A DNA stretch of 38,449 nt from Deltaproteobacteria bacterium (GCA_003599365.1 QZJR01000016.1:1-38449), one strand, 5' to 3'; positions 10,183 to 30,153 are shown, numbered from the stretch's first letter. Notes: generated from the sequence alone by a model not told the origin. Translations and numbers: made by a program.

Positions 10183-10200
10183 CTTGGGAACATTCTCAGG

Positions 10201-10239
10201 AACCTCCTGATTTCCTCTTTTAGAGAGTTGCATGATAAA
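10201..10239 (-). other. ~40-nt relic resembling the 3' end of the MFS gene at 12156-13427
   Basis: 'aacctcctgatttcctcttttagagagttgcatgataaa' versus 12168-12208 'aacttcctgattccctcttttagagagtcgcaggatataaa' (4 mismatches plus a 2-nt indel). Intergenic, with no intact ORF. Confidence 0.35.
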
Positions 10240-10279
10240 AAAATCAAAGGCACTTGGAAGGACAAGAAGAACATTTGTC

Positions 10280-11077
10280 CTACTTGCCCCGAAAGACAGG
10301 TTTCCTCTTCTCCTTGAATGCCTTCTGTCCCTCCTTCAAATCCTCACTACTAAAGCACCGGTTGATAAGCTCCTCAGCCATGGCTTCGTCTTCCGGGGTA
10401 GGCATTGGTGAACTTACAGATTTATTGATGAGTATCTTAGCTCCGCTTACAGATAATGGAGCATTCTCTATTATCTCCCTGGCCAGATCATAGGTCGCTG
10501 ACAGAAGATCATCCTCTGATACCACGTAATTAACAAGCCCCATTTCTTTCGCCTTGTGTGCATCAACCATCCTTCCTGTAAGAAATAGTTCTTTTGCATT
10601 TGCCTCACCTACCAGATTGACGAATCGCCTATGCCCGCTAAAGGAATAAAGAACACCCAGTTTTGCCGGTGGCATGCCAAACTTTGCTTTATCAGAAGCT
10701 ATCCTGAGATCACACGTTGCAGCAAGTTCACAACCTGCTCCAAGGGTAAAGCCATTTACCATGGCAATAACAGGGTATCTATATTCAGAAATCACCTCAA
10801 GCCCCCTCAGCAATGGATTTATCTTTTTTAATGCTTCCATATCTTCCGGACTAATTCCTTTGGGAATATCGAAAATACTGTATCCTGAAGAAAATGCCTC
10901 GTTTCCGGCTCCACGGACGACAACAACTCTGGTTTCTTGATCATCATTTAAGGATTCCATAACCCTAATAAACTGAATTAACAGAGGGGGGGATAATGAA
11001 TTTCGTTTCTCGGGGCGGTTAAATACAATAGTACATATACGATCCTGCTTCTCAACTATTATTAACTTATCATCCAT
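10280..11077 (-). CDS. Crotonase-fold protein (enoyl-CoA hydratase/isomerase family) retaining only the first catalytic Glu
   Basis: 'FNRPEKRNS' and '[29 protein letters not shown]'. The second Glu position is Pro. SD 'aggagg' precedes the ATG at 11077. Confidence 0.9.
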
Positions 11078-11309
11078 TTAGTCCTCCTGCATGACCGAGC
11101 AGCATATTTAATTCCACGAAGCTGCCCGGATCCAGAAGTTTATCAATCCGTTCTCGGGCCGTTAACTTACCGGCATTATGAACCTCTTCTATTTTGTCTG
11201 GTCCTCCGCCGAGTTTTGCCTTTTCCTTAACCTCTCTTAATTGCTGAATCCTACCCTTACCTTGTCCTCCCACAATCTCCTCCTTTTCCTTCACATCGTT
11301 CAACCCCAC
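11070..11309 (-). pseudogene. N-terminal relic (79 codons) of an acyl-CoA carboxylase carboxyltransferase (PccB/MmdA-like)
   Basis: '[45 protein letters not shown]' matches the conserved N-terminus of ~510-aa carboxyltransferases. The frame ends after ~79 codons inside the SD/start of the next crotonase. GTG start with no SD. Confidence 0.6.
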
Positions 11310-11354
11310 CCTGTAACAGGCCAGCTTGATCCCTTGAATCCTTTTAATATCTTC

Positions 11355-12131
11355 TTACCTGCCGGTAAAGGTCGGTTTTCGTTTTTCCAGCATAGCCATT
11401 ACGCCTTCTCCGGCATCCTCACTCTGATTCACTTCATCTGCCAGGGCTCTTAACTCAGATTCAATTTGAGGATCGATCCCATGGCGCTCCAGAAGTTTGT
11501 TAATAGTCAATTTGGTAGCCTTCATAGCCAGTGGAGCATTTTCTTCAGCCAACTCCTTTGCCATGGAATAGGTGGTCTTAATCAGTTGATCAGAAGAAAC
11601 CACCTGACTGACAAGCCCTATCTCCAGTGCCCGTTTCGCATCTACAAGTTTTCCTGCCAAGAGCAGCTCTTTTGCCGCCGCTATACCCACCAAACTGAGG
11701 AGTCGGTTAATTGCGGTATAATAATAAATCCTTCCAAGCTTAACCAGGGTCGCGCCAAATCTGGCCCCTTCCGACGCTATCCTGAAATCCGAGATAACAG
11801 ATATGTCCAGCCCGGCCCCGATGGCCGGCCCGGAGATCATGGCTATGATAGGAGATGGATAACTAATCAGGTTATTGAGACAGTGCTCCAATCCCTTTAT
11901 GGTCTTTTCAATGGATTCAGATCCGCCGGAAAGGTCTACCCCTGAAGAAAAGATATTGTCTCCTGCTCCCCTTATTACAACCACTCGAATATTATTATCC
12001 TCCTTTAAATCACTGAGAATATCTCCCATGCTAAATAGTGCGTCTGCATTTAAGGCATTCCTTTTCTCAGGTCTGTTGATGGAAAGGGTAGTAATATAAC
12101 CATCATCTTCCCTTAAAATTTCTTCTACCAT
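11355..12131 (-). CDS. Crotonase-fold protein lacking both canonical hydratase glutamates
   Basis: 'INRPEKRNAL' and 'GAGLDISVISDFRIASEGARFGATLVKLG' (Glu1 to Asp, Glu2 to Leu). SD 'aaggagg'. Confidence 0.9.
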   Translation of the reverse strand: MVEEILREDDGYITTLSINRPEKRNALNADALFSMGDILSDLKEDNNIRVVVIRGAGDNIFSSGVDLSGGSESIEKTIKGLEHCLNNLISYPSPIIAMISGPAIGAGLDISVISDFRIASEGARFGATLVKLGRIYYYTAINRLLSLVGIAAAKELLLAGKLVDAKRALEIGLVSQVVSSDQLIKTTYSMAKELAEENAPLAMKATKLTINKLLERHGIDPQIESELRALADEVNQSEDAGEGVMAMLEKRKPTFTGR

Positions 12132-12155
12132 ACTTCCTCCTTTGCTAATTCTGTT

Positions 12156-13427
12156 TTAACCCACATAAACTTCCTGATTCCCTCTTTTAGAGAGTCGCAG
12201 GATATAAAGAAAACCAACGGTGCTTAAAAGGGCAAGAACAGCAATTAATAGCCAACTCCAATAATAGCCAACGCTGTCAGCAATATACCCAAAGACAGGG
12301 GGGCCTATTATGATCCCTATCCACGCAATGGTTACGAGAATGCCCATGATTGATCCGGCCAGTTCCTTGCCTGCCAGCTCTGCGGCCAGGGTTATCAAAA
12401 CAGCGTTCCAACCTATAAAGGTACCTCCCATGAGAATTGACCAAAAGAAAGACAACCAGAGGGGAGAGCCTTTTGATAAGAAAGCCGTTCCAAGTGCACC
12501 GATGAAAGCGATAACCGATAAAATAACTATCGGTATCATTCTGTCTCCGGCAAATAACCGATCACTAATGATACCCCAACCGATCCTGCCCACTGACCCA
12601 GCTATCATTGCAGCAGTCAGACAACCTCCGGCAAGCCCCACTGAAAAGTTTAACTCCTCTTCCAGGTAAAGCACAAGGAACGAGGCAATACCGGTTTGCC
12701 CAAAGGCCATTAGCGGAGTTATAAGGCATAATATTAGAAGAACAGGATTTGACATTACCTTTAGCAGGGATCCCTCTTTTTGGCCTTTTTTCGATGTGGA
12801 TGCCACATTGGATGCCCCTTCAGCGGGGAGAACAGGACGCTCCTTATAAAATATCAGGGACAAAAAAGCCATAACAAGCATCAATATACCAATGACCAAA
12901 ACTCCCAACCTCCAGCTATATGCCACAGTCAGGGCAGGGAGTAAAACAGCAACGATAGCACCCCCTAGAGTAACCCCTGTCTGTTTTATACCCATCGCGG
13001 TGGCCCTGAACCTGGCAGAAAACCAGTACATAATACCTTTGGTCGAAATTTGATTTATCATTCCATAGCCCAGACCGCCAACTGCAGCAAAAACTATGAA
13101 AAACAGATAGTTTTTTGCCAACGCCATAATAGCAAAAGGTATCCCCATTATAATCAGACTGATAATGAGCATAATCCGAGCGCCCAACTTATCTACGGCT
13201 ATTCCGGAAGGTATGGCTATTATAACCGATGCGAAATACAGCACCGAGGTAATAGTTCCGATCTGGGCCCGGCTGAGGTTAAATTCATCTCTAAGAACCG
13301 GAGCCAGCGGACCCCATGTATAAGCACCCATGGACATAACCAACTGGGCCACAGTTAAAATGCCCAAGATTATCCACCCATAACTATTTTGATTCTCTTG
13401 AGTGATACTGGTATCAGGGTCTGTCAT
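12156..13427 (-). CDS. MFS transporter
   Basis: 12 predicted TM segments, ATG with SD 'aaggag'. Sits directly downstream of the tandem mutase genes. Confidence 0.85.
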   Translation of the reverse strand: MTDPDTSITQENQNSYGWIILGILTVAQLVMSMGAYTWGPLAPVLRDEFNLSRAQIGTITSVLYFASVIIAIPSGIAVDKLGARIMLIISLIIMGIPFAIMALAKNYLFFIVFAAVGGLGYGMINQISTKGIMYWFSARFRATAMGIKQTGVTLGGAIVAVLLPALTVAYSWRLGVLVIGILMLVMAFLSLIFYKERPVLPAEGASNVASTSKKGQKEGSLLKVMSNPVLLILCLITPLMAFGQTGIASFLVLYLEEELNFSVGLAGGCLTAAMIAGSVGRIGWGIISDRLFAGDRMIPIVILSVIAFIGALGTAFLSKGSPLWLSFFWSILMGGTFIGWNAVLITLAAELAGKELAGSIMGILVTIAWIGIIIGPPVFGYIADSVGYYWSWLLIAVLALLSTVGFLYILRLSKRGNQEVYVG

Positions 13428-13460
13428 CTCTTAACTCCTTAAAAGATAATTGTCATTATT

Positions 13461-15197
13461 CTAAACAAACGAATCCATCTGCCACTCACCAAATACGCCT
13501 CTCAAAACATCACACTGTTCTTGAAGGGTAGCGTATTCTCTTGCCAGATTAACAAAAAGAGGCATCAGGTTCTCATCGTCCTTTTTGGCAGCCCTTTCCA
13601 ACTCTCCAAGAAGCCTCGTTACTTCCCGGTTGTTCCTTGTACGTTTGACTTCAGCAAGGTTAGCCTTCTGCTTTTTCTCGGCATCATACCTCTTCTCTTC
13701 AGAATACGGATGCTCAACCATCTTGCTGGTGGTCACATCCAGCTCGTATTCCTCTGTGAAACAGTTCACTCCAACTATGATATCTTCTCTTTTCTCTATC
13801 CTGGACTGACGTTCAGCAGCGCTCTTTGCAATCGAGCGTTGCATATACCCGTTCTCAATAGCAGCCACAGATCCACCTATCCCCTCGACTTTTTCCAGTT
13901 CTTTCCATGCTGCTTCCTCTATTTCATTGGTCAATGACTCTACATAGTAAGACCCGGCCAGAGGATCTAAAACATCGCACATCCCTGTCTCATACATGAG
14001 AATCCTTGTTGCATCCTCTGCAAGCTGCCTTGCTTCCAAACTCCAACCCAATCCCAGCGGCTCATCATACGGCGGGAAGGCCAATGGCGGACCTCCCGAA
14101 AGAACACCGGCTACTGCGCCTATTACTGAGCGGGTAAGATTGTTCAGTGCCCGTTGTTTGGTGGTGGTACTGATACCACTATAGGCTGTGTATTGGCTTC
14201 GGATTCTCATGCTTTCGGATTTCTTTGCACCGAATCTTTCCTTGAGAATCTTAGCCCACATACGGCGAGACGCCCTATGGAAAGCGATCTCCTTGAAAAA
14301 CTCCATACTACCACCAAAACCTACAAAGGAAAACCTGGGGGCAAAGGCATCAATATTGAGTCCTGCATTTATCCCTTCCTGTAAATAAGCAATCCCGTTA
14401 GCCATAGTGAATGCCAATTCCTGCTCTCTTGTGGCTCCTCCCTCACGGATATGAGCACCGCCAAAGCCGTTTATATTCATCGCCGGAAGACTCTCCGTAA
14501 AGAAGACCAGACTGTCTCGAAACATACGCATGGAAGGCCTCGGAGGGAATATGTAGGTGCCGCGGGAAATAAACTCCTTTAGTATGTCATTCTGGGGGGT
14601 ACCCTTCAACTTTGCCAGTGATATACCCCTCTTCTCTGCAAGAGCCACATACATGGCAACCAGGATATTTGCAGGGGCATTTATCGTCATGTTTGTAGCG
14701 ATCTTGTCCAGATCCAGATTGCCTGTAAATGCCTCAAATATAACCTCAAAATCCCGCAAGGTGTCTACTGCCACACCCACCTTACCTATCTCTCCTTCAA
14801 CTATCTCATTATCCGAATCATAGCCGCACTGGGTAGGAAGATCTAACGCCAGGTTGGGCCCGCCTGTATACATTAATTTCGCCATTAATCTGTAGTAATC
14901 CCTGGTGTCTTCCGGGGTTCCATATCCGGAATATGTTCCTGCCCTTCTCAACCCCCCAGGCTTTGCACCTTTTTCAAGTCTTGGTACAAGATTTACCGGA
15001 TAAGAGGCTGCCGTCAATGGATATTGCCCAGGGAAACCCACATCCCGTAAGAAATCAAAGTCCGGTATGTCTAAAGGCGTATGGAATTCTGTCGGCCTTT
15101 TTTCTATACCAAACCTCTTGGCCGCAGGCAACAACGCCTTCTCCTCCCATTCCTCCTTCTTCTCTTTTATCTCAGCCAATTTATCTTTATTATCCAT
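13461..15197 (-). CDS. Acyl-CoA mutase large (catalytic, B12-dependent) subunit, divergent paralog 1 (578 aa, no fused B12 domain)
   Basis: MCM-family core: 'GTPQNDILKEFISRGTYIFPP', 'HIREGGATREQELAF', 'DPLAGSYYVESLT'. The N-terminal signature diverges ('FPGQYPLTAAS' in place of '..TRG'). Confidence 0.9.
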   Translation of the reverse strand: MDNKDKLAEIKEKKEEWEEKALLPAAKRFGIEKRPTEFHTPLDIPDFDFLRDVGFPGQYPLTAASYPVNLVPRLEKGAKPGGLRRAGTYSGYGTPEDTRDYYRLMAKLMYTGGPNLALDLPTQCGYDSDNEIVEGEIGKVGVAVDTLRDFEVIFEAFTGNLDLDKIATNMTINAPANILVAMYVALAEKRGISLAKLKGTPQNDILKEFISRGTYIFPPRPSMRMFRDSLVFFTESLPAMNINGFGGAHIREGGATREQELAFTMANGIAYLQEGINAGLNIDAFAPRFSFVGFGGSMEFFKEIAFHRASRRMWAKILKERFGAKKSESMRIRSQYTAYSGISTTTKQRALNNLTRSVIGAVAGVLSGGPPLAFPPYDEPLGLGWSLEARQLAEDATRILMYETGMCDVLDPLAGSYYVESLTNEIEEAAWKELEKVEGIGGSVAAIENGYMQRSIAKSAAERQSRIEKREDIIVGVNCFTEEYELDVTTSKMVEHPYSEEKRYDAEKKQKANLAEVKRTRNNREVTRLLGELERAAKKDDENLMPLFVNLAREYATLQEQCDVLRGVFGEWQMDSFV

Positions 15198-15252
15198 GAT
15201 AAGTCTACCTCCCTATCTCAGTTGATAAAACATGGTTGTCATTATTCTAAAC

Positions 15253-15380
15253 GTAACTATTCAGGCAGGCACAAAGGCACAGAGCACCAAAGGCACAAAG
15301 TAGGAAAAAACAATGAGACGACCCTGCTCCGCTCTGCTTTGTACCTATGTGCCTTTGCCACTTTGTGCCTGAGTAGTTAC
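15253..15380. mobile_element. 128-bp MITE with terminal inverted repeats and an 8-bp target-site duplication
   Basis: TIRs are 'gtaactattcaggcaggcacaaag' (left) and the reverse complement of the right end, 'gtaactactcaggcacaaag'. Flanking direct repeats are 'ttctaaac' (15245-15252) and 'ttctagac' (15381-15388). The paralogous empty site at 13451-13470 reads 'tgtcattattctaaacaaac'. Confidence 0.7.
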
Positions 15381-15382
15381 TT

Positions 15383-17119
15383 CTAGACAAACGTATCCAA
15401 CTGCCACTCACCAAACACACCTCTTAAAACATCGCATTGCTCTTGAAGGGTCGCATACTCCCTTGCCAGATTAATGAAAAGGGGCATCAGGTTCTCATCT
15501 TCCTTTTTAGCAGCACTCTCCAATTCTTTCAGAAGCCTCGTAACCTCCCGGTTATTCCTTGTCCGCTTCACCTCAGCCAGATTGGCCTTCTGCTTTTTCT
15601 CGGCATCATACCTCTTCTCTTCAGAATACGGATGCTCAATGATCTTACTGGTGGTTACATCGAGCTCATATTCCTCTGTAAAACAATTCACCCCTACAAT
15701 AAGTTCCTCTCTCCTCTCTATCCTGGCCTGACGCTCGGCAGCGCTCCTTGCACATTCGCGCTGCATATACCCGTTTTCTATTGCCGTCACGGCACCCCCT
15801 ATCCCTTCGATCTTCTCCAGCCCTTTCCACGCAGCATCCTCTATTTCGTTGGTCAATGATTCCACATAGTAAGACCCGGCCAGAGGGTCTATAACATCGC
15901 ACATCCCCGTCTCATACATGACAATCCTTGTGGCATCCTCGGCCAGTTGTCTCGCTTCTAAACTCCAGCCCAACCCCAGCGGTTCATCATATGGTGGAAA
16001 TGCCATTGGCGAACCTCCGGAGAGAACTCCAGCTATTGCCCCTACCACAGAACGGGAAAGGTTGTTCAGCGCCCGCTGCTTGGTGGTGCTGCTGCAACCA
16101 ATATGAGCTGAGAGAGGACACCGGATCCTCATACTATCCTGCTTCTTTGCACCGAACCTTTCTTTAAGAATCTTTGCCCACATACGGCGAGCTGCCCTCT
16201 GAAAGGCTACCTCCTTAAAAAGCTGCATGCTCCCCCCAAACCCATTGAAGGTAAACTTGGGGGCAAAGGCGTCAATATCGACCCCTGCATTCACACCCTC
16301 CTGCAAATAGGCAATCCCTATGGCCATACTAAAGGCCAGCTCCTGTTCCCGAGTAGCTCCCCCTTCACGAATATGATACCCACCGATACTGGTTATGTTT
16401 ACCCCTGGAAGATTCTCAGTAAAGAAGACCACGCTGTCTCGAAACATCCGCATAGAAGGTCTCGGAGGAAATATGTAGGTGCCCCTGGAAACAAACTCTT
16501 TTAGTATGTCATTCTGGGGTGTACACCTTAGTTTTGCCATGTTTATGCCCCTCTTTTCAGCCAGGGCTATGTACATGGCAACCAGGATATTTGCAGCGGC
16601 ACTGATGGTTATGTTCGTGGCTATCCTGTCCAGATCCTGCTCTCCTGTAAATGCCTCATAAATAACCTCAAAATCCCGCAAGGTATCTATCGCGACCCCC
16701 ACCTTGCCTACTTCCCCTTCGACCGTCTCATTATCCGAATCATAACCGCACTGGGTAGGGAGATCTAATGCCAGGTTGGGACCGCCTGTATACATTATCT
16801 TCGCCATCTGCTTATAGTAATCCCTGGTATCTTCCGGAGTGCCATAGCCGGAATATGTCCCTGCCCTTTTCAACCCCCCAGGCTTTGCACCCTTTTCAAT
16901 CCGAGGCACAAGACTTATTGGATAAGCTGATGGGGTAAACGGATATTGCCCCGGAAAACCAACATCACGCTCAAAGTCAAAATCCGCTATATCCAAAGGC
17001 GTATAGAATTCCGTCGGACTTTTCTCTATACCGAACCTCTTGGCTGAGGGCATCAATACCTTCTCTTCCCATTCCTTCCTCTTCTCTTTTATCTCACTCA
17101 ATTTATCTTTATTATCCAT
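15383..17119 (-). CDS. Acyl-CoA mutase large subunit, divergent paralog 2 (578 aa), tandem duplicate of 13461-15197
   Basis: Collinear with paralog 1 with no indels (constant 1922-nt offset), roughly 80-85% aa identity by eye. 'CTPQNDILKEFVSRGTYIFPP' and 'GGYHIREGGAT'. Confidence 0.9.
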   Translation of the reverse strand: MDNKDKLSEIKEKRKEWEEKVLMPSAKRFGIEKSPTEFYTPLDIADFDFERDVGFPGQYPFTPSAYPISLVPRIEKGAKPGGLKRAGTYSGYGTPEDTRDYYKQMAKIMYTGGPNLALDLPTQCGYDSDNETVEGEVGKVGVAIDTLRDFEVIYEAFTGEQDLDRIATNITISAAANILVAMYIALAEKRGINMAKLRCTPQNDILKEFVSRGTYIFPPRPSMRMFRDSVVFFTENLPGVNITSIGGYHIREGGATREQELAFSMAIGIAYLQEGVNAGVDIDAFAPKFTFNGFGGSMQLFKEVAFQRAARRMWAKILKERFGAKKQDSMRIRCPLSAHIGCSSTTKQRALNNLSRSVVGAIAGVLSGGSPMAFPPYDEPLGLGWSLEARQLAEDATRIVMYETGMCDVIDPLAGSYYVESLTNEIEDAAWKGLEKIEGIGGAVTAIENGYMQRECARSAAERQARIERREELIVGVNCFTEEYELDVTTSKIIEHPYSEEKRYDAEKKQKANLAEVKRTRNNREVTRLLKELESAAKKEDENLMPLFINLAREYATLQEQCDVLRGVFGEWQLDTFV

Positions 17120-17167
17120 GATACCTTTACCTCCCCCTAAACCTGAAATATTTCCAGCCAGAACTTT

Positions 17168-17575
17168 TCAGGCTATTTTACGTACGTTTTTCCTTATAAA
17201 GTCCCCAATATCCTTTATCAGAGTACCAGGACCAAAGATTTCTGTGACACCTTTCTCTTTGAGTATTGGGATATGCTCGTCAGGTATAATGCCACCACCT
17301 ATAACCAACATATCTCCAGCGTCATTTTCCCTCAAAAGATTCACAACCTTGGGGAAGAATGTCAGATGGGCTCCGGATAGGATGCTAAGCCCCACAACAT
17401 CCACATCCTCTTGCAGTGCTGAGTTTACAATCTGTTCGGCTGACTGTCTCCTTCCGGTATAGATTACTTCCATACCCTGGTCTCTCAGCCCGAAGGAGAG
17501 AACCTTTGCGCCTCTATCATGTCCGTCAAGCCCGGGCTTTGCTATTAATACCTTTATCTTTCTTTCTTTTTCCAT
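17168..17575 (-). CDS. Stand-alone B12-binding (cobalamin) small subunit of an acyl-CoA mutase
   Basis: '[18 protein letters not shown]' (DxHxxG), 'GLSILSG' (SxL), 'IGGGIIP' (GG). ATG at 17575 has SD 'aaggagg'. The track's TTG at 17614 would overlap the upstream gene. Confidence 0.9.
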
Positions 17576-17588
17576 AAAAAACACCTCC

Positions 17589-19544
17589 TTAATCATAGAT
17601 AGTCTGACATTCAAGTATCTCCACCGGTACCTCGGTTTCTCTTTCTATCTCCATATATACCCTTCCTGTCAGGTCCCTTCCCCACCCACTTAGATTGAAG
17701 GGCGAAGATGGGATTACGACCAAATCCGGTTTTACATCCGTTGATTTAATATAATCTTTTATATAGTTAATATAATCCTGGACTACTAATAAATCCCCCA
17801 TACAGATATTACCCCCAAAAAATCGGTTTGGAGGAACAGCAACCTTTATATCAATGTTCCTTCCTCTAAAGAAAGGGGATTCCAGCATGACCTTTTCCAG
17901 CAATGGCTTAATAAGGATTGACGTAAGGAAGAGGATGTTTTTGGCACCTTTCTTTTCGATAAGGTATTCTAATGACTCCAGGTAACCTCCCCGAAGACCT
18001 GTGCCCATAAATATTATCCCGAGATGGGTGTCGATATCCCTCGAATATGGGTATGAAGTCTTGTTTAAATTGAGTAAGAGATCCAATGTACAACCCTTCC
18101 TCAAGACCTCTATTGCCACAGATTCCATCTCATTCTTTTGTAAAATGGAGAGGAGGGTTCGGGCCTGAGGTCTATTGTGGATCACATTGCTCCCTATCTT
18201 CGTCAATATATCGCCTCTTCGCAAACCACTGTTAGCCACCGGAGAGCCTTTCACTATTCCGATAATTTCCGGCAGGTTCTTCCGGTTACAGAACAGCCCC
18301 TCTTCATACATAGCAGGCCTGATTACTATGGGAATCCCGTATTTACTCCTTATATCCCTTACCTTCCTGGCAATCGCCTCCCAGATGGAATCATGGTCGA
18401 ACAGATCATCTTCTGAAAAGTACTTAGAGTACCCCGGTAAGCTGATTTCTGCGAGATGGGCGTCATTTTCATCAGCATACTCAATCGTTCTCTCCATGTC
18501 ATCCAGCATCTCCTCCGGAGATCCGTCAGGCCATGGCACAATGACTGTGTTGTAAGGAATACCGGCTTTCCTGAGTAAAGGCAGAGATTTGATAGCTATC
18601 TCCGGGGTTTTGTCATGCATTAACCTCTGCCTCCTATGAGTTGAAGAACTATGCAGGGCAACATCCAGGTGCAATGGATTAAACCCCAAAAGGTAATCAA
18701 TCATCTCCTCTGTCAGAGTCGAACCATTTGTAGTTATTCTTATAAGTTTATCGCTCTTCTTCCGAACTTCCTGTAGTACCTCTCTGAAATGGGGATGAAT
18801 GAATGCCTCAAAGCTGCTCCCCAGACTTGTGAATAAGTTCTTCTTTTTTTCAGGATAAAAGTATTTCAGGCGGGTCTGTACCTCTTTGAACTCTTCGTCA
18901 GGAGACTTAGAAGGGTTCGTAAGTGCCAGAGATGGGGGACATCCTTTGTTATAACAAAAAACACAGTTGCAGTTGCATCTTGTTGCCAGATATCCCAACA
19001 TATCAGCGGGATCACAGGAAGACTCTTCAACCCATTGGGACAAGTCTTTAAGCCTGAAGGCATCGACTTTCACTGTCTTTCCATGACTTTCCAGCTCCAC
19101 CAAATCCAACAAACTCTGTAGTAGTCGTTGAATATACTCGACAGTCGGTTCATAAAGGGAGGTATTTCTTATAGATTGGAAACCGCACCCCCATGCGTCC
19201 CCATTTTCTTCTTCGAGAGATTTGCCGTTGTCTCCGTCCGGATATCTGATGGTTTCCGTTGGCATAAGGTTTCCCCGGCGTTCGCTATCCGATTCGACAG
19301 GGCACCCTTCATCCCCATCGAATACCCTGTGTATACGACTCCTGTCGTTCATCAATTTGAATCCGTCAATCCTTACCTCAGAATCTCCGTTACAGGGGAT
19401 TGCTATATCGAGGATATTCCTCAAATGCATTCTCAAAAGATCTAATCGAGAGGCACAGCGCTTATCCTCTCTATTGGTGCCATCAGACATTTTATATCGA
19501 AAGACATAATCATTGTCTGAAGATGCTGTTTCTTCCCTTTTCAT
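17589..19544 (-). CDS. Radical SAM protein with an internal PDZ-like domain, a DUF512-like C-terminus and an unassigned ~175-190-aa N-terminal region
   Basis: 'CNCNCVFC' is CxxxCxxC. The PDZ-like stretch is '[21 protein letters not shown]'. The C-terminus '[28 protein letters not shown]' resembles DUF512. ATG at 19544 has SD 'aggag', whereas the GTG at 19595 has none. Confidence 0.8.
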
Positions 19545-19602
19545 TTTGACTCCTGAATTCTGTCTCCTGTCTCCTGAACAGTTAGAAATCACCACGATTA
19601 TT

Positions 19603-20820
19603 TTACAGCTTCTCTTTTACATGTTTTGCCAATTCTTTAGCATGCTCCTCTGTTTCTTTTTGTATAGACCTTATCTTTTCATCGGAATACCCAAGAAGAC
19701 TTTTCAATACCTCTTCAGTATGTTGACCAAGGGTTGGCGGCGGCTCGTGGCTACCATCCATTCTATCCCTGATGCGTATAGGAGTTGCAATAGCCCTGAT
19801 CGGCCCGCAGACCGGATGATCCATATGAATAACGGTCTCATTATAAATCACCTGAGGGTCTTTCTCTACCTTGTCCAGTGTGTTTATAGGTCCGCCAATT
19901 ATGTCATGCTCTTTAAACAGATCCAACCATTCTTCTGTGTCCTTCTCCATGAGGGCCTCTTCCATGATACTTTCCAATTCATTCTTAGACTTCAGTCTTT
20001 TTTCCATTGTGTCAAACCTTGGATCGTTTAGAAGCCAGCTTCTACCGAGCACATGGGCAATATCCGGCCATGAGAGACCTAAGGTTACATATCCATTCCG
20101 GGTCTGAAACACCCCGATAGGAGCAGCAGGATGCCTTTTTCCTTGAGGTTTCGGTGGCTTGCCGGAGAGAAAGTACATCTGAAAGTGGTTGGACATAAGT
20201 GACATAGTAGATTCTAAAAGGTTCACATCTACTCTCACTCCTTTGCCTGTCTTCTGCCTTTCGTAGAGGGCTGCAACGACACCCATAGCGCCGAAAAAAC
20301 CTCCTGAAAGATCCGCAATTGCAATACCAGGACGAAGTGGACCGCTATCAGGATCCCCTACAAGGCTTAATGAGCCTGCCATCCCTTGAACAATATCATC
20401 AATAGCGGGTTTATCCTTATATGGCCCTGCTGTACCATATCCGGTAATAGAACAAGAGATAATTTTAGGATTCGTCTTCTTCAAGGTTTCAAAATCAACT
20501 CCCAATCTTTCAATGACACCGGCTCTAAAATTGTCAAACACTACATCGGATATTTTGACCAGGTCATAGAATGCCTCTTTACCGGATTCAGTATACATAT
20601 CCAGCGTAATGCTCTTCTTGTTTCGATTGAGAGCCAGGGTATAATAGCTCTCACCCTTTAAGCTCGGATTAATCCCCCTCACGATATCCCCCCTGCCTGG
20701 AGGCTCTATCTTTAATACCTCTGCTCCCAGGTCACCCAAAAGCTGAGACCCATATGGTCCTGCATGGGCATGTGATAGGTCCAGAACTCTAATACCGGTT
20801 AGTGGTCCCCTAATTGCCAT
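19603..20820 (-). CDS. Family III CoA-transferase (CaiB/BaiF/Frc-like)
   Basis: 'GIRVLDLSHAHAGPYGSQLLGDLGAEVLKIEPP' N-terminal signature, 405 aa, SD 'gggggagg'. Confidence 0.9.
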   Translation of the reverse strand: MAIRGPLTGIRVLDLSHAHAGPYGSQLLGDLGAEVLKIEPPGRGDIVRGINPSLKGESYYTLALNRNKKSITLDMYTESGKEAFYDLVKISDVVFDNFRAGVIERLGVDFETLKKTNPKIISCSITGYGTAGPYKDKPAIDDIVQGMAGSLSLVGDPDSGPLRPGIAIADLSGGFFGAMGVVAALYERQKTGKGVRVDVNLLESTMSLMSNHFQMYFLSGKPPKPQGKRHPAAPIGVFQTRNGYVTLGLSWPDIAHVLGRSWLLNDPRFDTMEKRLKSKNELESIMEEALMEKDTEEWLDLFKEHDIIGGPINTLDKVEKDPQVIYNETVIHMDHPVCGPIRAIATPIRIRDRMDGSHEPPPTLGQHTEEVLKSLLGYSDEKIRSIQKETEEHAKELAKHVKEKL

Positions 20821-20836
20821 CTTCCTCCCCCTCTAA

Positions 20837-21631
20837 CTATCTTCCTTTGAAAATTGGCTCACGTTTCTCCATAAACGCCTTCATGCCCTCAACTCGATCC
20901 TCAGTATTCCAGCATACCCCAATGGTCATCACTTCGTAATCAACGGCTTGTGATATGTCCATATTATAAAAATTCTGGAGACCTCTCTTTGCCAGGGCTA
21001 TTGGTATCGGGGCATTCTTTGCCATTTTCTGGGCCAGTTCTTTTGTTGCGTGAATGAGATTATCGTGGGGCACCACTTTATTGACCATGCCAATTCTAAG
21101 CGCCTCTTCAGCATCTATTATGTCTCCTGTAAAAATCAATTCTGCCGCCTTGGCATAGCCAACCAGCCTCGGCAAAAACCAGATACCTCCCCAATCAGGA
21201 TGTACCCCTCGTTTCACAAATGCCTGAGAAAATCTGGCACGCTCACTCGCAATACGGATGTCACACGATAGGGCAAGGTTGCACCCACCGCCCGCGGCCG
21301 CCCCATTTACAGCGGCAATGACCGGCTTCTCAATAGAATTGATTAACAGGACAATCTTGCTCATGGCAGGCCGTTCACTGGTAGCGATATTTGAAAGGGC
21401 CTTTGTAGTTCCAGAAACAAATTCATCTATATCGCCCCCTACGCAAAACGCCTTTCCTGCCCCTGTAATCACTATCACACGTACATCGCCATCAGAGCAG
21501 GCGAGTTCAAGGGCTGCCAATATCTCCTGTCGCATATTGCCGCCCAGGGCGTTGTATTTTTCAGGCCGATTTAAGGTAATTGTGCCGATACCATCCTCTT
21601 TTTCAAACAATACAAATTCCCATTCCATCAT
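20837..21631 (-). CDS. Crotonase-fold protein lacking both canonical hydratase glutamates
   Basis: 'LNRPEKYNAL' and 'GGGCNLALSCDIRIASERARFSQAFVKRG' (Glu1 to Asn, Glu2 to Phe). ATG at 21631 sits 5 nt after SD 'aggagg'. The track's TTG at 21649 is unlikely. Confidence 0.9.
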   Translation of the reverse strand: MMEWEFVLFEKEDGIGTITLNRPEKYNALGGNMRQEILAALELACSDGDVRVIVITGAGKAFCVGGDIDEFVSGTTKALSNIATSERPAMSKIVLLINSIEKPVIAAVNGAAAGGGCNLALSCDIRIASERARFSQAFVKRGVHPDWGGIWFLPRLVGYAKAAELIFTGDIIDAEEALRIGMVNKVVPHDNLIHATKELAQKMAKNAPIPIALAKRGLQNFYNMDISQAVDYEVMTIGVCWNTEDRVEGMKAFMEKREPIFKGR

Positions 21632-21678
21632 CTCTTCCTCCTGTATCAAAGTAGATCGTCTTGAAAAATGAAAATAGG

Positions 21679-22620
21679 TTATGACTCAAAGTCTCCAGCC
21701 AGCTCCAAAGACAGCCTATTGGCCCCTTCAACCATCCGCTTAATAAGTTCCTCGATAGTGGTAATCTCCTTTGTCAATCCTGCAATTTGCCCCGCAGGCA
21801 TAAGCATATAATCCGGATCGTTTTTATGCTCACTGCCCAGTTTGTCCACAAAGGCGTTGATTTCCTCTTGGTTGGCACCTTTTTCCTCCATTTCACGAAT
21901 CGCCATAACAGCCTTATTCTTCAAAGCTCTGAGAGGGAAACCCTTTCTAGCCGCAATCATTGTACTATTGTCCCTGGCAGCTAGAATTGCCTGTTTATAT
22001 ACCTCAGGGACAGGGCACTCCTCTGTGACAAGGAAACGGGTGCCCATCTGTATCCCCTCAGCGCCAAGGGCGTGTACCGCCACCCAACCCCGTGCATCTC
22101 CTATACCACCTGCTGCAACCACCGGTATCCTGACCGCGTCTACTACCTGGGGAATGAGTGTCAGTGTACTCACTTCATCTCGACCCACATGGCCGCCTGC
22201 CTCTGTCCCTACGGCAATAACGCCATCTACCCCTGCATCCTCTGCCTTCTTCGCCATCTCTACTGTAGGGGCCATGTGCAACACCTTAATCCCTGCCTCT
22301 TTAATCCTCTTTATGAGTTTACCTGCATCACCGGCCGAGGTAGTGATCGTCTTTATCCCTTCTTCAATAGCTATCTCCAGTGCCTCAAAGGCATTGGGTC
22401 TGTAGACAGGAATATTTATACCGAGGGGGTTGTCGGTCAATTCACGGGCATTCCTGATCTGTTTTCTCAAAGGTTCTGCCTTCATCCCTGAGGCAGCTAT
22501 TAAACCAAAACCCCCTGCATTGGACATGGCTGCCGCCATTTTCGCAAGGGTAATAAAACGCATTGCCCCTAAGATAATCGGATATTGAGAACCAAGTATC
22601 TCGGTAATCCTGTTTTTCAT
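21679..22620 (-). CDS. NMO/2-nitropropane-dioxygenase-family FMN oxidoreductase (FabK-like enoyl reductase fold)
   Basis: 'YPIILGAM', 'GVDGVIAVGTEAGGH', 'IPVVAAGGIGD', 'GAEGIQMGTRF'. Confidence 0.85.
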   Translation of the reverse strand: MKNRITEILGSQYPIILGAMRFITLAKMAAAMSNAGGFGLIAASGMKAEPLRKQIRNARELTDNPLGINIPVYRPNAFEALEIAIEEGIKTITTSAGDAGKLIKRIKEAGIKVLHMAPTVEMAKKAEDAGVDGVIAVGTEAGGHVGRDEVSTLTLIPQVVDAVRIPVVAAGGIGDARGWVAVHALGAEGIQMGTRFLVTEECPVPEVYKQAILAARDNSTMIAARKGFPLRALKNKAVMAIREMEEKGANQEEINAFVDKLGSEHKNDPDYMLMPAGQIAGLTKEITTIEELIKRMVEGANRLSLELAGDFES

Positions 22621-22654
22621 AGAGACTCCTTTTCAATGGTATTTGTAACTCGTG

Positions 22655-23449
22655 CTATCTCCCTTTCCAGGTAGGTGGCCTCTTCTCCGTGAAGGCTTTA
22701 AAACCCTCCATTACGTCCTCAGTGCGCATCAGGCTATGAGTTACATGGTCTGTTAGAGACATGGCATCAGGACGGCTCATATCCTCGCCTCTCCTAATCA
22801 GCTCTTTTACTGCCCTTATTGCGAGAGGACTATTTTGACAGATACTCTCCGCCATCTCCGTTGCCGTAGGGAGAAGTTGCTCAGCGGAAACTATCCGGGT
22901 CACCAGTCCCACCTCGTAGGCCCTCTGAGCGCTGATTTTATCTGTGGTAAGGAGCATTTCATGGGCAACCCCTCGGGGGATATAGCGCTGGAGAAGCGCA
23001 GTAAAGGTTGCCGGCATGCCCAACCTCGGCTCCGGTACCCCAAATTGAGCGCTCTCAACGGCAATCCTTATGTCGCTTTCCAACGCCAGCCACAAGCCTC
23101 CACCAAGACAATACCCGTTGATGGCCGCAATAATGGGTTTCGAGACATCATATCTTGCAGGAGATGCACGCCAAACAGGCGCCTCTTTCTCCCAAGAAAT
23201 CACCCTTGACGGAGGATTGCCCTTCATCGCCTCCAACATCTCCACGTCCGATGCGATATCAACCCCGGCGCAAAATGCCTTCCCAGCGCCAGTGAGAACA
23301 CCCACCCACACGTCATCATCGTCCCTGAAATTCACCCAGGTCTTCGCTAACTCATTGACAAGCTCAGGATTTAGGGCATTTAACTTTTCAGGACGATTCA
23401 TGGTAATATAAGCGATTTTATCCTTCTTCTCATAGATGACTAACGACAT
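22655..23449 (-). CDS. Crotonase-fold protein retaining only the second catalytic Glu
   Basis: 'MNRPEKLNAL' and 'GGGLWLALESDIRIAVESAQFGVPEPRLG' (Glu1 to Trp). Confidence 0.9.
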   Translation of the reverse strand: MSLVIYEKKDKIAYITMNRPEKLNALNPELVNELAKTWVNFRDDDDVWVGVLTGAGKAFCAGVDIASDVEMLEAMKGNPPSRVISWEKEAPVWRASPARYDVSKPIIAAINGYCLGGGLWLALESDIRIAVESAQFGVPEPRLGMPATFTALLQRYIPRGVAHEMLLTTDKISAQRAYEVGLVTRIVSAEQLLPTATEMAESICQNSPLAIRAVKELIRRGEDMSRPDAMSLTDHVTHSLMRTEDVMEGFKAFTEKRPPTWKGR

Positions 23450-23468: not shown

Positions 23469-23915
23469 CTAGCCCTTTAAAGCAAACATTACATCACAGC
23501 ATTCATCGCCGGCTGCCACCGTCTTCAAGATAGAGAGGTCAATTTCTTCCCCTGTAGCCGCTTCAAAGATCCCTATATCCATATTCATCATGGCCTCACA
23601 TAACGGACGACCGGCACCGGCCAAGCCTAATGCACACCGTTCGTTTTTGCATCTAAGCCTTTTTTCTGTGAGTTCGAGTAGTGTTACCGGACTTTTACGC
23701 CGTTTAGCGCCTTCCAAAAAGGCGCTGCCAACACTCTTGAGGTCAAAGGAATCCAAATTTGTTCTCATCTGGTTTCCAATAGCCCTTCCCAACCTGCGGC
23801 ACACCTCCCCTATAAGAGGCAGAACCTCATCACCATACTTTTTATAAATCATACGGCTTAACAATGCCAGTGCATCCCTTGCAGTATTTACCTCAACTTC
23901 TTGCAATGAATTCAT
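23469..23915 (-). CDS. Small Cys-rich protein, possibly ATC-hydrolase-like (PF14196-type) fold
   Basis: The C-terminal pattern 'RCKNERCALG..PLCEAMMNMDIGIFEA..AAGDECCDVMF' resembles that family's C..C / LC..D / G..CDF signature as I remember it. The family assignment is tentative. Confidence 0.55.
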   Translation of the reverse strand: MNSLQEVEVNTARDALALLSRMIYKKYGDEVLPLIGEVCRRLGRAIGNQMRTNLDSFDLKSVGSAFLEGAKRRKSPVTLLELTEKRLRCKNERCALGLAGAGRPLCEAMMNMDIGIFEAATGEEIDLSILKTVAAGDECCDVMFALKG

Positions 23916-29401: not shown

Positions 29402-29442
29402 CTTTTCACCCTCCATAAAGTAGAAGTATTGTTAAAAGCCGC

Positions 29443-30153
29443 TTATCTTCCAATCTTTTCAAGATACTCCTGGAGTATCTCACCATTTATCGTGATATGG
29501 TTTTCTACGAGAGACCTTACTAAATCGGCATCTTTCTCAATAAAGGCTTCAATAATCCTTTCATGGGCATCCATGAATATTTTCAGCGGATTGGGACGTA
29601 TCGTAATGAGAAACCAATTTTGAGGGATTACGTCCACCTTATCTCGAATCAATTCCACAAGGCCTATTACGCCACATTTCCTTACAAATACCCCATGGAA
29701 TCTTTCGTTTAACCTCAACCATCTTTCGTAATCGTTTTCCAGGACAGCGGTTTCCATTTGCAGTTGATACTCTTTGAGCTTCTCAATATCGGCAGTCTCC
29801 ATGTATTTTACAGCCTGTCCAGCCGCTGCTCCAGCCAGGACAGCAGTAATAAAATAAATATCTTCTATCTCTTTATGTTGAAGTTTGCGGACAGTGGCTC
29901 CTTTATTCGGGATTATCTCTACTATTTTTTCAAAGCTAAGCTTTCTGATAGCTTCCCTCAGAGGGGTGCGACTCACCTGCAACTCTTCGGCCAGAGTGGC
30001 CTCCACTAATCTTTCACCGGGCATGAGATAACCGTATTTTATAGCATGCTTCAAGGCGCTATATATCACCTTTTCTAAAGGTTCCCCATCTTTAACCTCA
30101 AGTTTAAGCTTCACTGGAGCAACTATAATTTCACCTGCCTTTTCCAAAACCAT
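29443..30153 (-). CDS. GntR-family transcriptional regulator with an FCD-type C-terminal domain
   Basis: wHTH 'PGERLVEATLAEELQVSRTPLREAIRKL' plus a helical effector domain. SD 'aaggagg'. Confidence 0.88.
   Translation of the reverse strand: MVLEKAGEIIVAPVKLKLEVKDGEPLEKVIYSALKHAIKYGYLMPGERLVEATLAEELQVSRTPLREAIRKLSFEKIVEIIPNKGATVRKLQHKEIEDIYFITAVLAGAAAGQAVKYMETADIEKLKEYQLQMETAVLENDYERWLRLNERFHGVFVRKCGVIGLVELIRDKVDVIPQNWFLITIRPNPLKIFMDAHERIIEAFIEKDADLVRSLVENHITINGEILQEYLEKIGR

Follow-up and report, generated by a model that had tools for sequence, protein, structure and literature searches.

Four crotonase-fold genes on a 38,449-nucleotide contig from a Deltaproteobacteria bacterium (GCA_003599365.1, QZJR01000016.1) raise the question of what their products do: automatic annotation names all four 'enoyl-CoA hydratase', and they lie among genes for B12-dependent acyl-CoA mutases. 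The window analyzed here is the whole of this 38.4-kb contig, and its source is a metagenome-assembled genome (MAG) of 1.9 Mb that is 74% complete. We refer to the four proteins by the coordinates at which their genes begin, as P1 (10280), P2 (11355), P3 (20837) and P4 (22655). The answer that we propose, and to which we give about an even chance of being right, is that these are four intact and maintained crotonases, each of which has exchanged the catalytic glutamate pair for another conserved set of residues, with P1 and P2 acting on malonyl-type thioesters, P3 as an isomerase and P4 as a hydratase. The most notable new points are a conserved pairing of P2 with a carboxyltransferase, and the replacement of that carboxyltransferase in the source genome by a crotonase resembling methylmalonyl-CoA decarboxylase (MMCD).

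In a canonical enoyl-CoA hydratase (EC 4.2.1.17) two glutamates, Glu144 and Glu164 in the rat enzyme (rat ECH), act as base and acid in hydration (PMC3660561). The corresponding residues of P1 to P4 were located by pairwise HMMER alignment to canonical crotonases of solved structure (5Z7R, which is a Clostridium crotonase, 7EUM and 5ZAI) and by MAFFT alignment with PaaF, PaaG, ScpB, MenB and CaiD from the annotated E. coli K-12 genome. Both methods identify the same columns, and the first and second glutamate positions are occupied by E117/P137 in P1, D109/L129 in P2, N124/F144 in P3, and W120/E140 in P4; among the references they are E/E in PaaF and CaiD, T/F in PaaG, E/P in ScpB (MMCD), and V/G in MenB. 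A first-pass annotation of this DNA had claimed that none of the four carries the canonical Glu-Glu pair, and this is confirmed: the four motifs that it quoted are present in the translations exactly as written, the residues in its table fall under the glutamates of the GGGCE and QPE motifs in the HMMER alignments, and no alignment places glutamate at both positions in any of the proteins, which was the result it had named as contrary to its claim.

The four proteins are otherwise unremarkable members of the crotonase superfamily. All of the open reading frames (ORFs) are intact, covering positions 1-250 or 6-250 of the 251 in ECH_1 and matching the full PF00378 profile at 162-229 bits, and each retains the glycine of G-x-G, one of the two oxyanion-hole motifs (F-x-x-G and G-x-G) of the superfamily. 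Their best-scoring solved relatives are canonical short-chain hydratases (rat ECH, 5Z7R and PaaF), with which they share fold, length and oxyanion-hole motifs at 30-35% identity, but these carry both glutamates whereas P1 to P4 each lack the full pair. All four fall below the cut-off of every NCBIfam model, so membership of a curated hydratase equivalog is excluded, and the other possibility raised in the first pass, that the proteins belong to well-characterized hydratase subgroups, found no such subgroup to rest on. The source genome encodes 13 ECH_1 paralogs, of which five have the canonical E/E pair, all on other contigs, and eight do not; four paralogs drawn from these would all be non-canonical with a chance of 70/715 (∼0.10), and the pattern in four neighboring genes is only weakly beyond chance. 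Loss of the glutamate pair is common in the superfamily and its mere occurrence would not surprise specialists, so that the observation is sound and only moderately unusual.

Among the paralogs of this genome P1 and P2 are closest to one another (43% identity), and both resemble the E. coli decarboxylase ScpB/YgfG (1EF8, 6N92), a crotonase-fold enzyme that likewise is without the second glutamate and has lost the PGxGG loop. Residues 66, 113, 133 and 140 of ScpB are His, Glu, Pro and Tyr, of which P1 shares the Glu, Pro and Tyr, with proline at the second glutamate position in both, and P2 shares the Tyr alone. The Tyr140 column, which in canonical hydratases is a proline forming part of PGxGG, contains Tyr144 in P1 and Tyr136 in P2. 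The function proposed for Tyr140 of MMCD is to position the departing carboxylate; the parts played by this residue and by His66 were reportedly set out by Benning et al. in 2000, and our literature search found no open paper describing them.

The replacement residues are strongly conserved in both families. The P1 family has more than 7000 database matches, and among the 119 closest sequences (50-87% identity, nearly all of ∼265 aa) the columns equivalent to 66/113/133/140 read Y-E-P-Y in 77 and Y-D-P-Y in 35, accounting for 112/119, with the tyrosine of the Tyr140 column kept in all 119. The P2 clade is smaller and rare. In 80 sequences with at least 51% identity to P2, Asp109 and Leu129 are each present in 79, Tyr136, which sits in an LGR-x-YYYT motif, is present in all 80, and the combination x-D-L-Y is found in 78. 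A profile search of the genome contigs using the P2 alignment recovered one true family member, in G007 (see below), the other matches being mostly generic EKRKPxF, and a search of the ESM Atlas with P2 returned generic crotonase clusters only. A P1-like gene is also present in G024 (46% identity), in an uninformative context.

In a 53-sequence IQ-TREE phylogeny, ScpB, the P1 family and the P2 family form a single clade with support of 100/98, subject to the long branch of ScpB and the topology test described below. AlphaFold2 (AF2) models of both proteins match crotonase structures, and the P2 model (pLDDT 91.5) has its best TM-scores to MMCD (0.89 to 6N92 and 0.88 to 1EF8). P2 is a member of a rare MMCD-like clade. 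The sequence of P1 resembles MMCD and makes it a candidate (alkyl)malonyl-CoA decarboxylase of the biotin-independent kind, which would act on a malonyl-type thioester; P2 could be a decarboxylase too, or an epimerase-like protein handling the same malonyl-type substrate beside its carboxyltransferase partner.

Comparison with related genomes reveals how P1 came to its present position. Two of these, G001 and G005, are congeners of the source MAG, and the others are G002, G006, G007, G009, G010 and G012; G007 is a Thermodesulfobacteriota MAG ('tar_biofilm') of the same family and another genus. P1 orthologs in G005 (89% identity) and G007 (82%) both lie between the GntR and PrpD genes, and in the source genome P1 is gone from this ancestral site, there being no gene between the two (29416-29443). 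By blastn, window coordinates 10272-11077 correspond to the P1 gene of G005, starting with the ATG and running 8 nt beyond the stop codon, and 11083-13448 to the 5′ end of the G001 carboxyltransferase gene together with P2 and an adjacent major facilitator superfamily (MFS) transporter gene. What remains of the carboxyltransferase is a relic of 79 codons that is 92% identical to residues 1-79 of the G001 protein, and no ortholog is present elsewhere in the source MAG, where the best match has 45% identity. The two segments join in a GGAGG/GAAGG microhomology at which carboxyltransferase codons meet the Shine-Dalgarno sequence of P1, which survives. On the other side of P1 is a second relic with 75-80% identity to the 3′ ends of the G005 and G001 MFS genes and a self-match to window 12172-12204. 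An assembly chimera is judged unlikely, as the join is a 5-6 nt microhomology and not a shared repeat. An ORF-exact P1 cassette has recombined from the GntR/PrpD site into the place of the carboxyltransferase, which has been destroyed in the source genome. In G007 a gene for a MeaB-type mutase chaperone GTPase (306 bits; L028:3647-4621, G007:C427) lies between GntR and P1, and no MeaB gene was seen among the window ORFs.

G001 lacks P1, has P4 and P3 in place, and shows the arrangement without the replacement, in which the MFS gene, P2 and the gene for an intact carboxyltransferase of 533 aa come after the tandem mutases; the best family of this carboxyltransferase is mmdA (TIGR01117, 602 bits; PF01039, 512 bits). 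The pair of P2 and carboxyltransferase genes is found in G001, G002, G010 and G012, that is, in four genomes of two genera, and in G010 and G012 it directly follows the gene for a B12 small subunit; the MFS gene between the tandem mutases and P2 is also present in G001 and G002. At the G010 locus (L110, G010:C7, 3759-13393; genus g5) the small subunit stands alone, with no mutase large subunit on the contig, and upstream are TRAP transporter genes (TAtT, DctM, DctP, DctQ and DctP) together with genes for a radical-SAM protein of 395 aa and for an AMP-ligase that shares 69% identity with that of the window.

Both large subunits of the tandem mutases keep the arginine of the xRxTYIxPP motif when aligned to E. 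coli ScpA, and the other two mutases of the window are without it. In methylmalonyl-CoA mutase this arginine binds the free carboxylate. Because it is kept, the products of the tandem mutases are plausibly 2-substituted malonyl-CoA thioesters, which would most likely be the substrates of P1 and P2. A mutase followed by a carboxyltransferase is an established decarboxylation logic in alkylsuccinate catabolism (PMC6776118), and in E. coli K-12 the crotonase-fold decarboxylase gene scpB follows scpA in the scpA-argK-scpB-scpC operon; P1 and P2 are likewise clustered with B12 acyl-CoA mutases. The first-pass annotation had two of the crotonases directly following the Arg-retaining mutases and took this to fit a mutase-then-decarboxylase scheme. 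The retention of the arginine is borne out and the adjacency holds for P2 only, with an MFS gene intervening and a biotin-type carboxyltransferase as the conserved neighbor. P1 arose away from the tandem mutases and was recombined into the carboxyltransferase's place; the argument from mutase adjacency fails for P1, and the conserved partner of P2 is the carboxyltransferase. A bolder interpretation joins the tandem mutases, P2 and the mmdA-like carboxyltransferase in one conserved module, in which a substituted succinyl-CoA would first be rearranged and then decarboxylated, and supposes that here the biotin-independent P1 displaced the biotin-dependent carboxyltransferase by microhomology-mediated, ORF-exact replacement; we regard this combined scenario as doubtful.

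A catabolic pathway starting from a fumarate adduct (alkylsuccinate) was also considered and set aside for want of support, in that the four glycyl-radical enzymes scored are of the PFL2, HypD or sulfopropanediol-dehydratase type and not benzyl- or alkylsuccinate synthases. The relatives G006, G007, G001 and G009 (e.g. L114, L115, L113:3407-6112) have four to seven glycyl-radical enzymes of ∼800 aa, and in G009 one of 901 aa is encoded two genes away from P2; the source MAG and G005 yielded no such enzyme.

The third protein corresponds to a different group. P3 has neither glutamate, and its Asp152, in the motif HPDWGG, aligns with Asp136 of Thermus thermophilus PaaG, which is the catalytic, proton-shuttling base of that enzyme (PMC7497051). 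PaaG of T. thermophilus (6SL9) and of E. coli (4FZW chain C) similarly have no glutamate at either position, an aromatic residue at the second position, and an aspartate in PDxGG, and in the tree P3 falls in the clade of E. coli PaaG with support of 99/95. Among the 143 nearest representatives of 50%-identity clusters most have the pattern x-F/Y/W-D, the commonest being N-F-D, that of P3 itself (27/143), and only 12/143 have E/E. P3 scores 214.6 bits against TIGR02280, below the equivalog cut-off of 345, and P3 differs from PaaG in setting, as its neighbors encode an NMO/FabK-like flavoprotein and a family III CoA-transferase, a position kept in G001 and G005, and no paa genes are present in the window. 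P3 is probably a PaaG-type enoyl-CoA isomerase, and would most likely shift the double bond of a 3-enoyl-CoA to give the 2-enoyl-CoA, using Asp152 as its sole base. For P3 the TTG listed as start (21628-21649) probably lies too far upstream; relatives align from residue 8 (MEWEF...), which favors an ATG at codon 7 or 8.

P4 retains only the second glutamate at the canonical positions, as do the crotonases HCHL and DpgD and presumably BbsH. Trp120, Glu124 and Glu140 are invariant in 19/19 close relatives (at least 69% identity). In more distant relatives the second glutamate is kept in 97/101 and several residues occur in the first column (S, W, G, L, A, E), with a bulky residue at 120 tending to pair with glutamate at 124. 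Glu124 lies four residues, or one helical turn, after Trp120, and it may be that the first catalytic glutamate of P4 has been displaced to this position and not lost. P4 groups with E. coli CaiD, itself a long branch, with support of 98/91, and its clade is marked by the invariant Trp120 and Glu124 together with a clade-specific insertion of ∼8-11 residues. Some relatives of P4 (49-77% identity) are named E-phenylitaconyl-CoA hydratase (BbsH) or DpgD by JGI, labels that are automatic, and no open paper giving the BbsH residues was found in our literature search. Like bbsEF in the bbs operon (BbsEF, G, CD, AB), a family III CoA-transferase gene, the one such gene of the window, is near P4, but the window contains no thiolase of the BbsAB or any other type and no acyl-CoA dehydrogenase such as BbsG. 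G001 has P4, and at the corresponding site G005 lacks it. Because one glutamate, and possibly two, are kept, and because relatives are labeled hydratases, P4 may well be a hydratase; from its sequence it is a candidate for hydration of 2-substituted enoyl-CoA, and its most likely substrate would be an enoyl-CoA that is bulky or substituted at C2, with Glu140 as catalytic residue and Glu124 perhaps as the displaced partner. The suggestion in the first-pass annotation that none of these proteins is a simple hydratase is reasonable in general, agrees with the PaaG pattern of P3 and the MMCD pattern of P1 and P2, and sits less well with P4.

Several observations weigh against the functions proposed here. 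To our knowledge no member of any of the four clades has been assayed. P1 and P2 are only 29-31% identical to ScpB, and MMCD His66 is not kept, being replaced by Tyr66 in P1 and Val65 in P2; P2 departs further from ScpB in having Asp and Leu at the glutamate columns and a biotin-type carboxyltransferase partner. ScpB is a long branch in the tree, and its placement among the canonical hydratases is not rejected by an approximately unbiased test (p = 0.07). PRK11423, with an equivalog cut-off of 257 bits, gives P1 186 and P2 150 bits. The AF2 model of P1 (pLDDT 83) resembles LiuC and canonical hydratases and not MMCD, its active-site loops being of low confidence. The ancestral neighbors of P1 are GntR, PrpD and the AMP-ligase, not the tandem mutases, and the conserved partner of P2 is itself the usual candidate for decarboxylation and is missing beside P2 in G007 and G009. 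For P4, the BbsH label on its relatives comes from automatic annotation.

The likeliest alternative denies P2, and perhaps P1 as well, a decarboxylase role; the protein would instead be an epimerase or racemase or another enolate-forming helper, readying the product of the mutases for the biotin-type carboxyltransferase, or a binder or shuttle of acyl-CoA like Mycobacterium tuberculosis EchA6, which is non-catalytic. The mmdA-like partner in G001, G002, G010 and G012 already supplies decarboxylation, MMCD His66 is missing, and the P2 model is nearly as close to EchA6 (TM-score 0.87) as it is to MMCD. By sequence, however, P2 matches MMCD in a PDB search at 101 bits, and EchA6 is absent from its 60 best matches. 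Non-catalytic binders of the EchA6 kind would be expected to have no conserved acid or base residues in the pocket, whereas in the 80 P2-family sequences Asp109 and the tyrosines at 136-138 (YYYT) are nearly invariant, which argues for catalysis or very specific binding, and the occurrence of P2 without a carboxyltransferase in G007 and G009 speaks against a helper role. We consider this alternative rather unlikely.

It is also conceivable that all four proteins are still hydratases or dehydratases, hydratase-lyases or hydrolases, which use alternative acid and base residues on unusual substrates in ordinary steps of the β-oxidation kind. Suitable candidates are Glu117 and the tyrosine in P1, Asp109 and the tyrosine in P2, and the retained Glu140 with the invariant Glu124 in P4, whose relatives bear hydratase names from JGI; the best-scoring PDB and NCBIfam matches are hydratases for all four proteins, the P1 model is canonical-like, and the window encodes no other crotonase to perform hydration and contains flavoenzymes that would create enoyl-CoAs. 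On the other hand, both glutamate columns of P3 are without an acidic residue and the protein fits the isomerase triad of PaaG; the second glutamate is missing from P1 and P2, which have a tyrosine in place of the PGxGG loop as in MMCD; and the genome has five canonical E/E hydratases on other contigs. We regard this alternative as unlikely. That P1 to P4 are decaying or inactive paralogs whose missing glutamates reflect loss of function is highly improbable, because although the region has rearrangement scars and the cluster varies in gene content between congeners, the four ORFs are full-length with intact oxyanion-hole motifs, P1 still has a Shine-Dalgarno sequence where it now lies, and in 19 to 119 relatives (50-90% identity) the substituting residues hardly vary, a conservation on which we rejected the pseudogene reading.

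Table 1. Genes and relics of the window in order of transcription; all genes from 38118 down to 8762 are on the minus strand.
Feature	Coordinates	Strand	Position or residues
DctM transporter		(-)	First in transcription order
B12 mutase pair	35083 + 34592	(-)	Next after DctM
OYE/FadH-like reductase, then KstD-like flavoprotein		(-)	After first mutase pair
Usp, GntR, PrpD-like protein, AMP-ligase		(-)	In that order, after KstD-like flavoprotein
Second mutase pair	24471 + 24018	(-)	After AMP-ligase
Small Cys-rich protein	23469-23915	(-)	Between second mutase pair and P4
P4, 264-aa crotonase	22655..23449	(-)	Trp120, Glu124, Glu140
NMO/FabK-like flavoprotein		(-)	Between P4 and P3
P3 crotonase	20837..21649	(-)	Asn124, Phe144, Asp152 (HPDWGG)
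Family III CoA-transferase, then radical-SAM/PDZ protein		(-)	After P3
Tandem B12 mutase block	13461..17614	(-)	Small subunit 17168-17614; large subunits 15383-17119, 13461-15197
MFS transporter	12156..13427	(-)	Between tandem mutases and P2
P2, 258-aa crotonase	11355..12131	(-)	Val65, Asp109, Leu129, Tyr136
mmdA-like carboxyltransferase relic, 79 codons	11070..11309	(-)	
Translocated P1 cassette with upstream junction (blastn)	10272..11082	(-)	
P1, 265-aa crotonase	10280..11077	(-)	Tyr66, Glu117, Pro137, Tyr144 at MMCD columns 66/113/133/140
Relic of MFS 3′ end (gene 12156-13427)	10197..10268, 72 nt	(-)	Downstream edge of P1 cassette
Second MFS transporter		(-)	Last, after P1

The gene cluster is mosaic within a single genus, as seen by comparing the window with G005:C66 and G001:C4. 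In G005 the order is DctM, a mutase pair, Usp, GntR, P1, PrpD, AMP-ligase and a second mutase pair, followed by the Cys-rich protein, NMO, P3, the CoA-transferase, the radical-SAM protein, the tandem mutases and two MFS genes; P2, P4, the OYE reductase and the KstD-like flavoprotein are absent from the cluster. In G005, moreover, 1.5 kb of DNA separates the AMP-ligase from the second mutase, and in G001 a stretch of 1.6 kb separates the CoA-transferase from the radical-SAM gene. The small Cys-rich protein has a weak match to ATC_hydrolase (23 bits, below the cut-off), and a homologue in G237, from an unrelated family, is encoded (L112:9485-9925) immediately downstream of a gene resembling P2 (58% identity), with genes for a DUF35/OB-fold protein and an SCP-x-type thiolase nearby. 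The Cys-rich protein gene thus adjoins a crotonase gene in two different contexts, P4 in the window and the P2-like gene in G237.

If the class assignments that we infer for P1 to P4 are correct, this cluster combines three B12 mutase systems with no standard hydratase, and its chemistry would be one of rearrangement, decarboxylation and double-bond shifting, not plain β-oxidation. The P1 and P2 families would then enlarge the small set of crotonase-fold decarboxylases. The exchange of a carboxyltransferase for P1 offers a concrete clue, open to test, to the function of a family whose unannotated members number in the thousands in anaerobic, hydrocarbon-impacted habitats. Should P1 truly have displaced the carboxyltransferase in function, this would be a natural instance of non-orthologous displacement, pointing to a decarboxylase function for the large uncharacterized Y-E/D-P-Y family, and the rare x-D-L-Y(YYT) family of P2 would represent a new catalytic variant of the crotonase superfamily.

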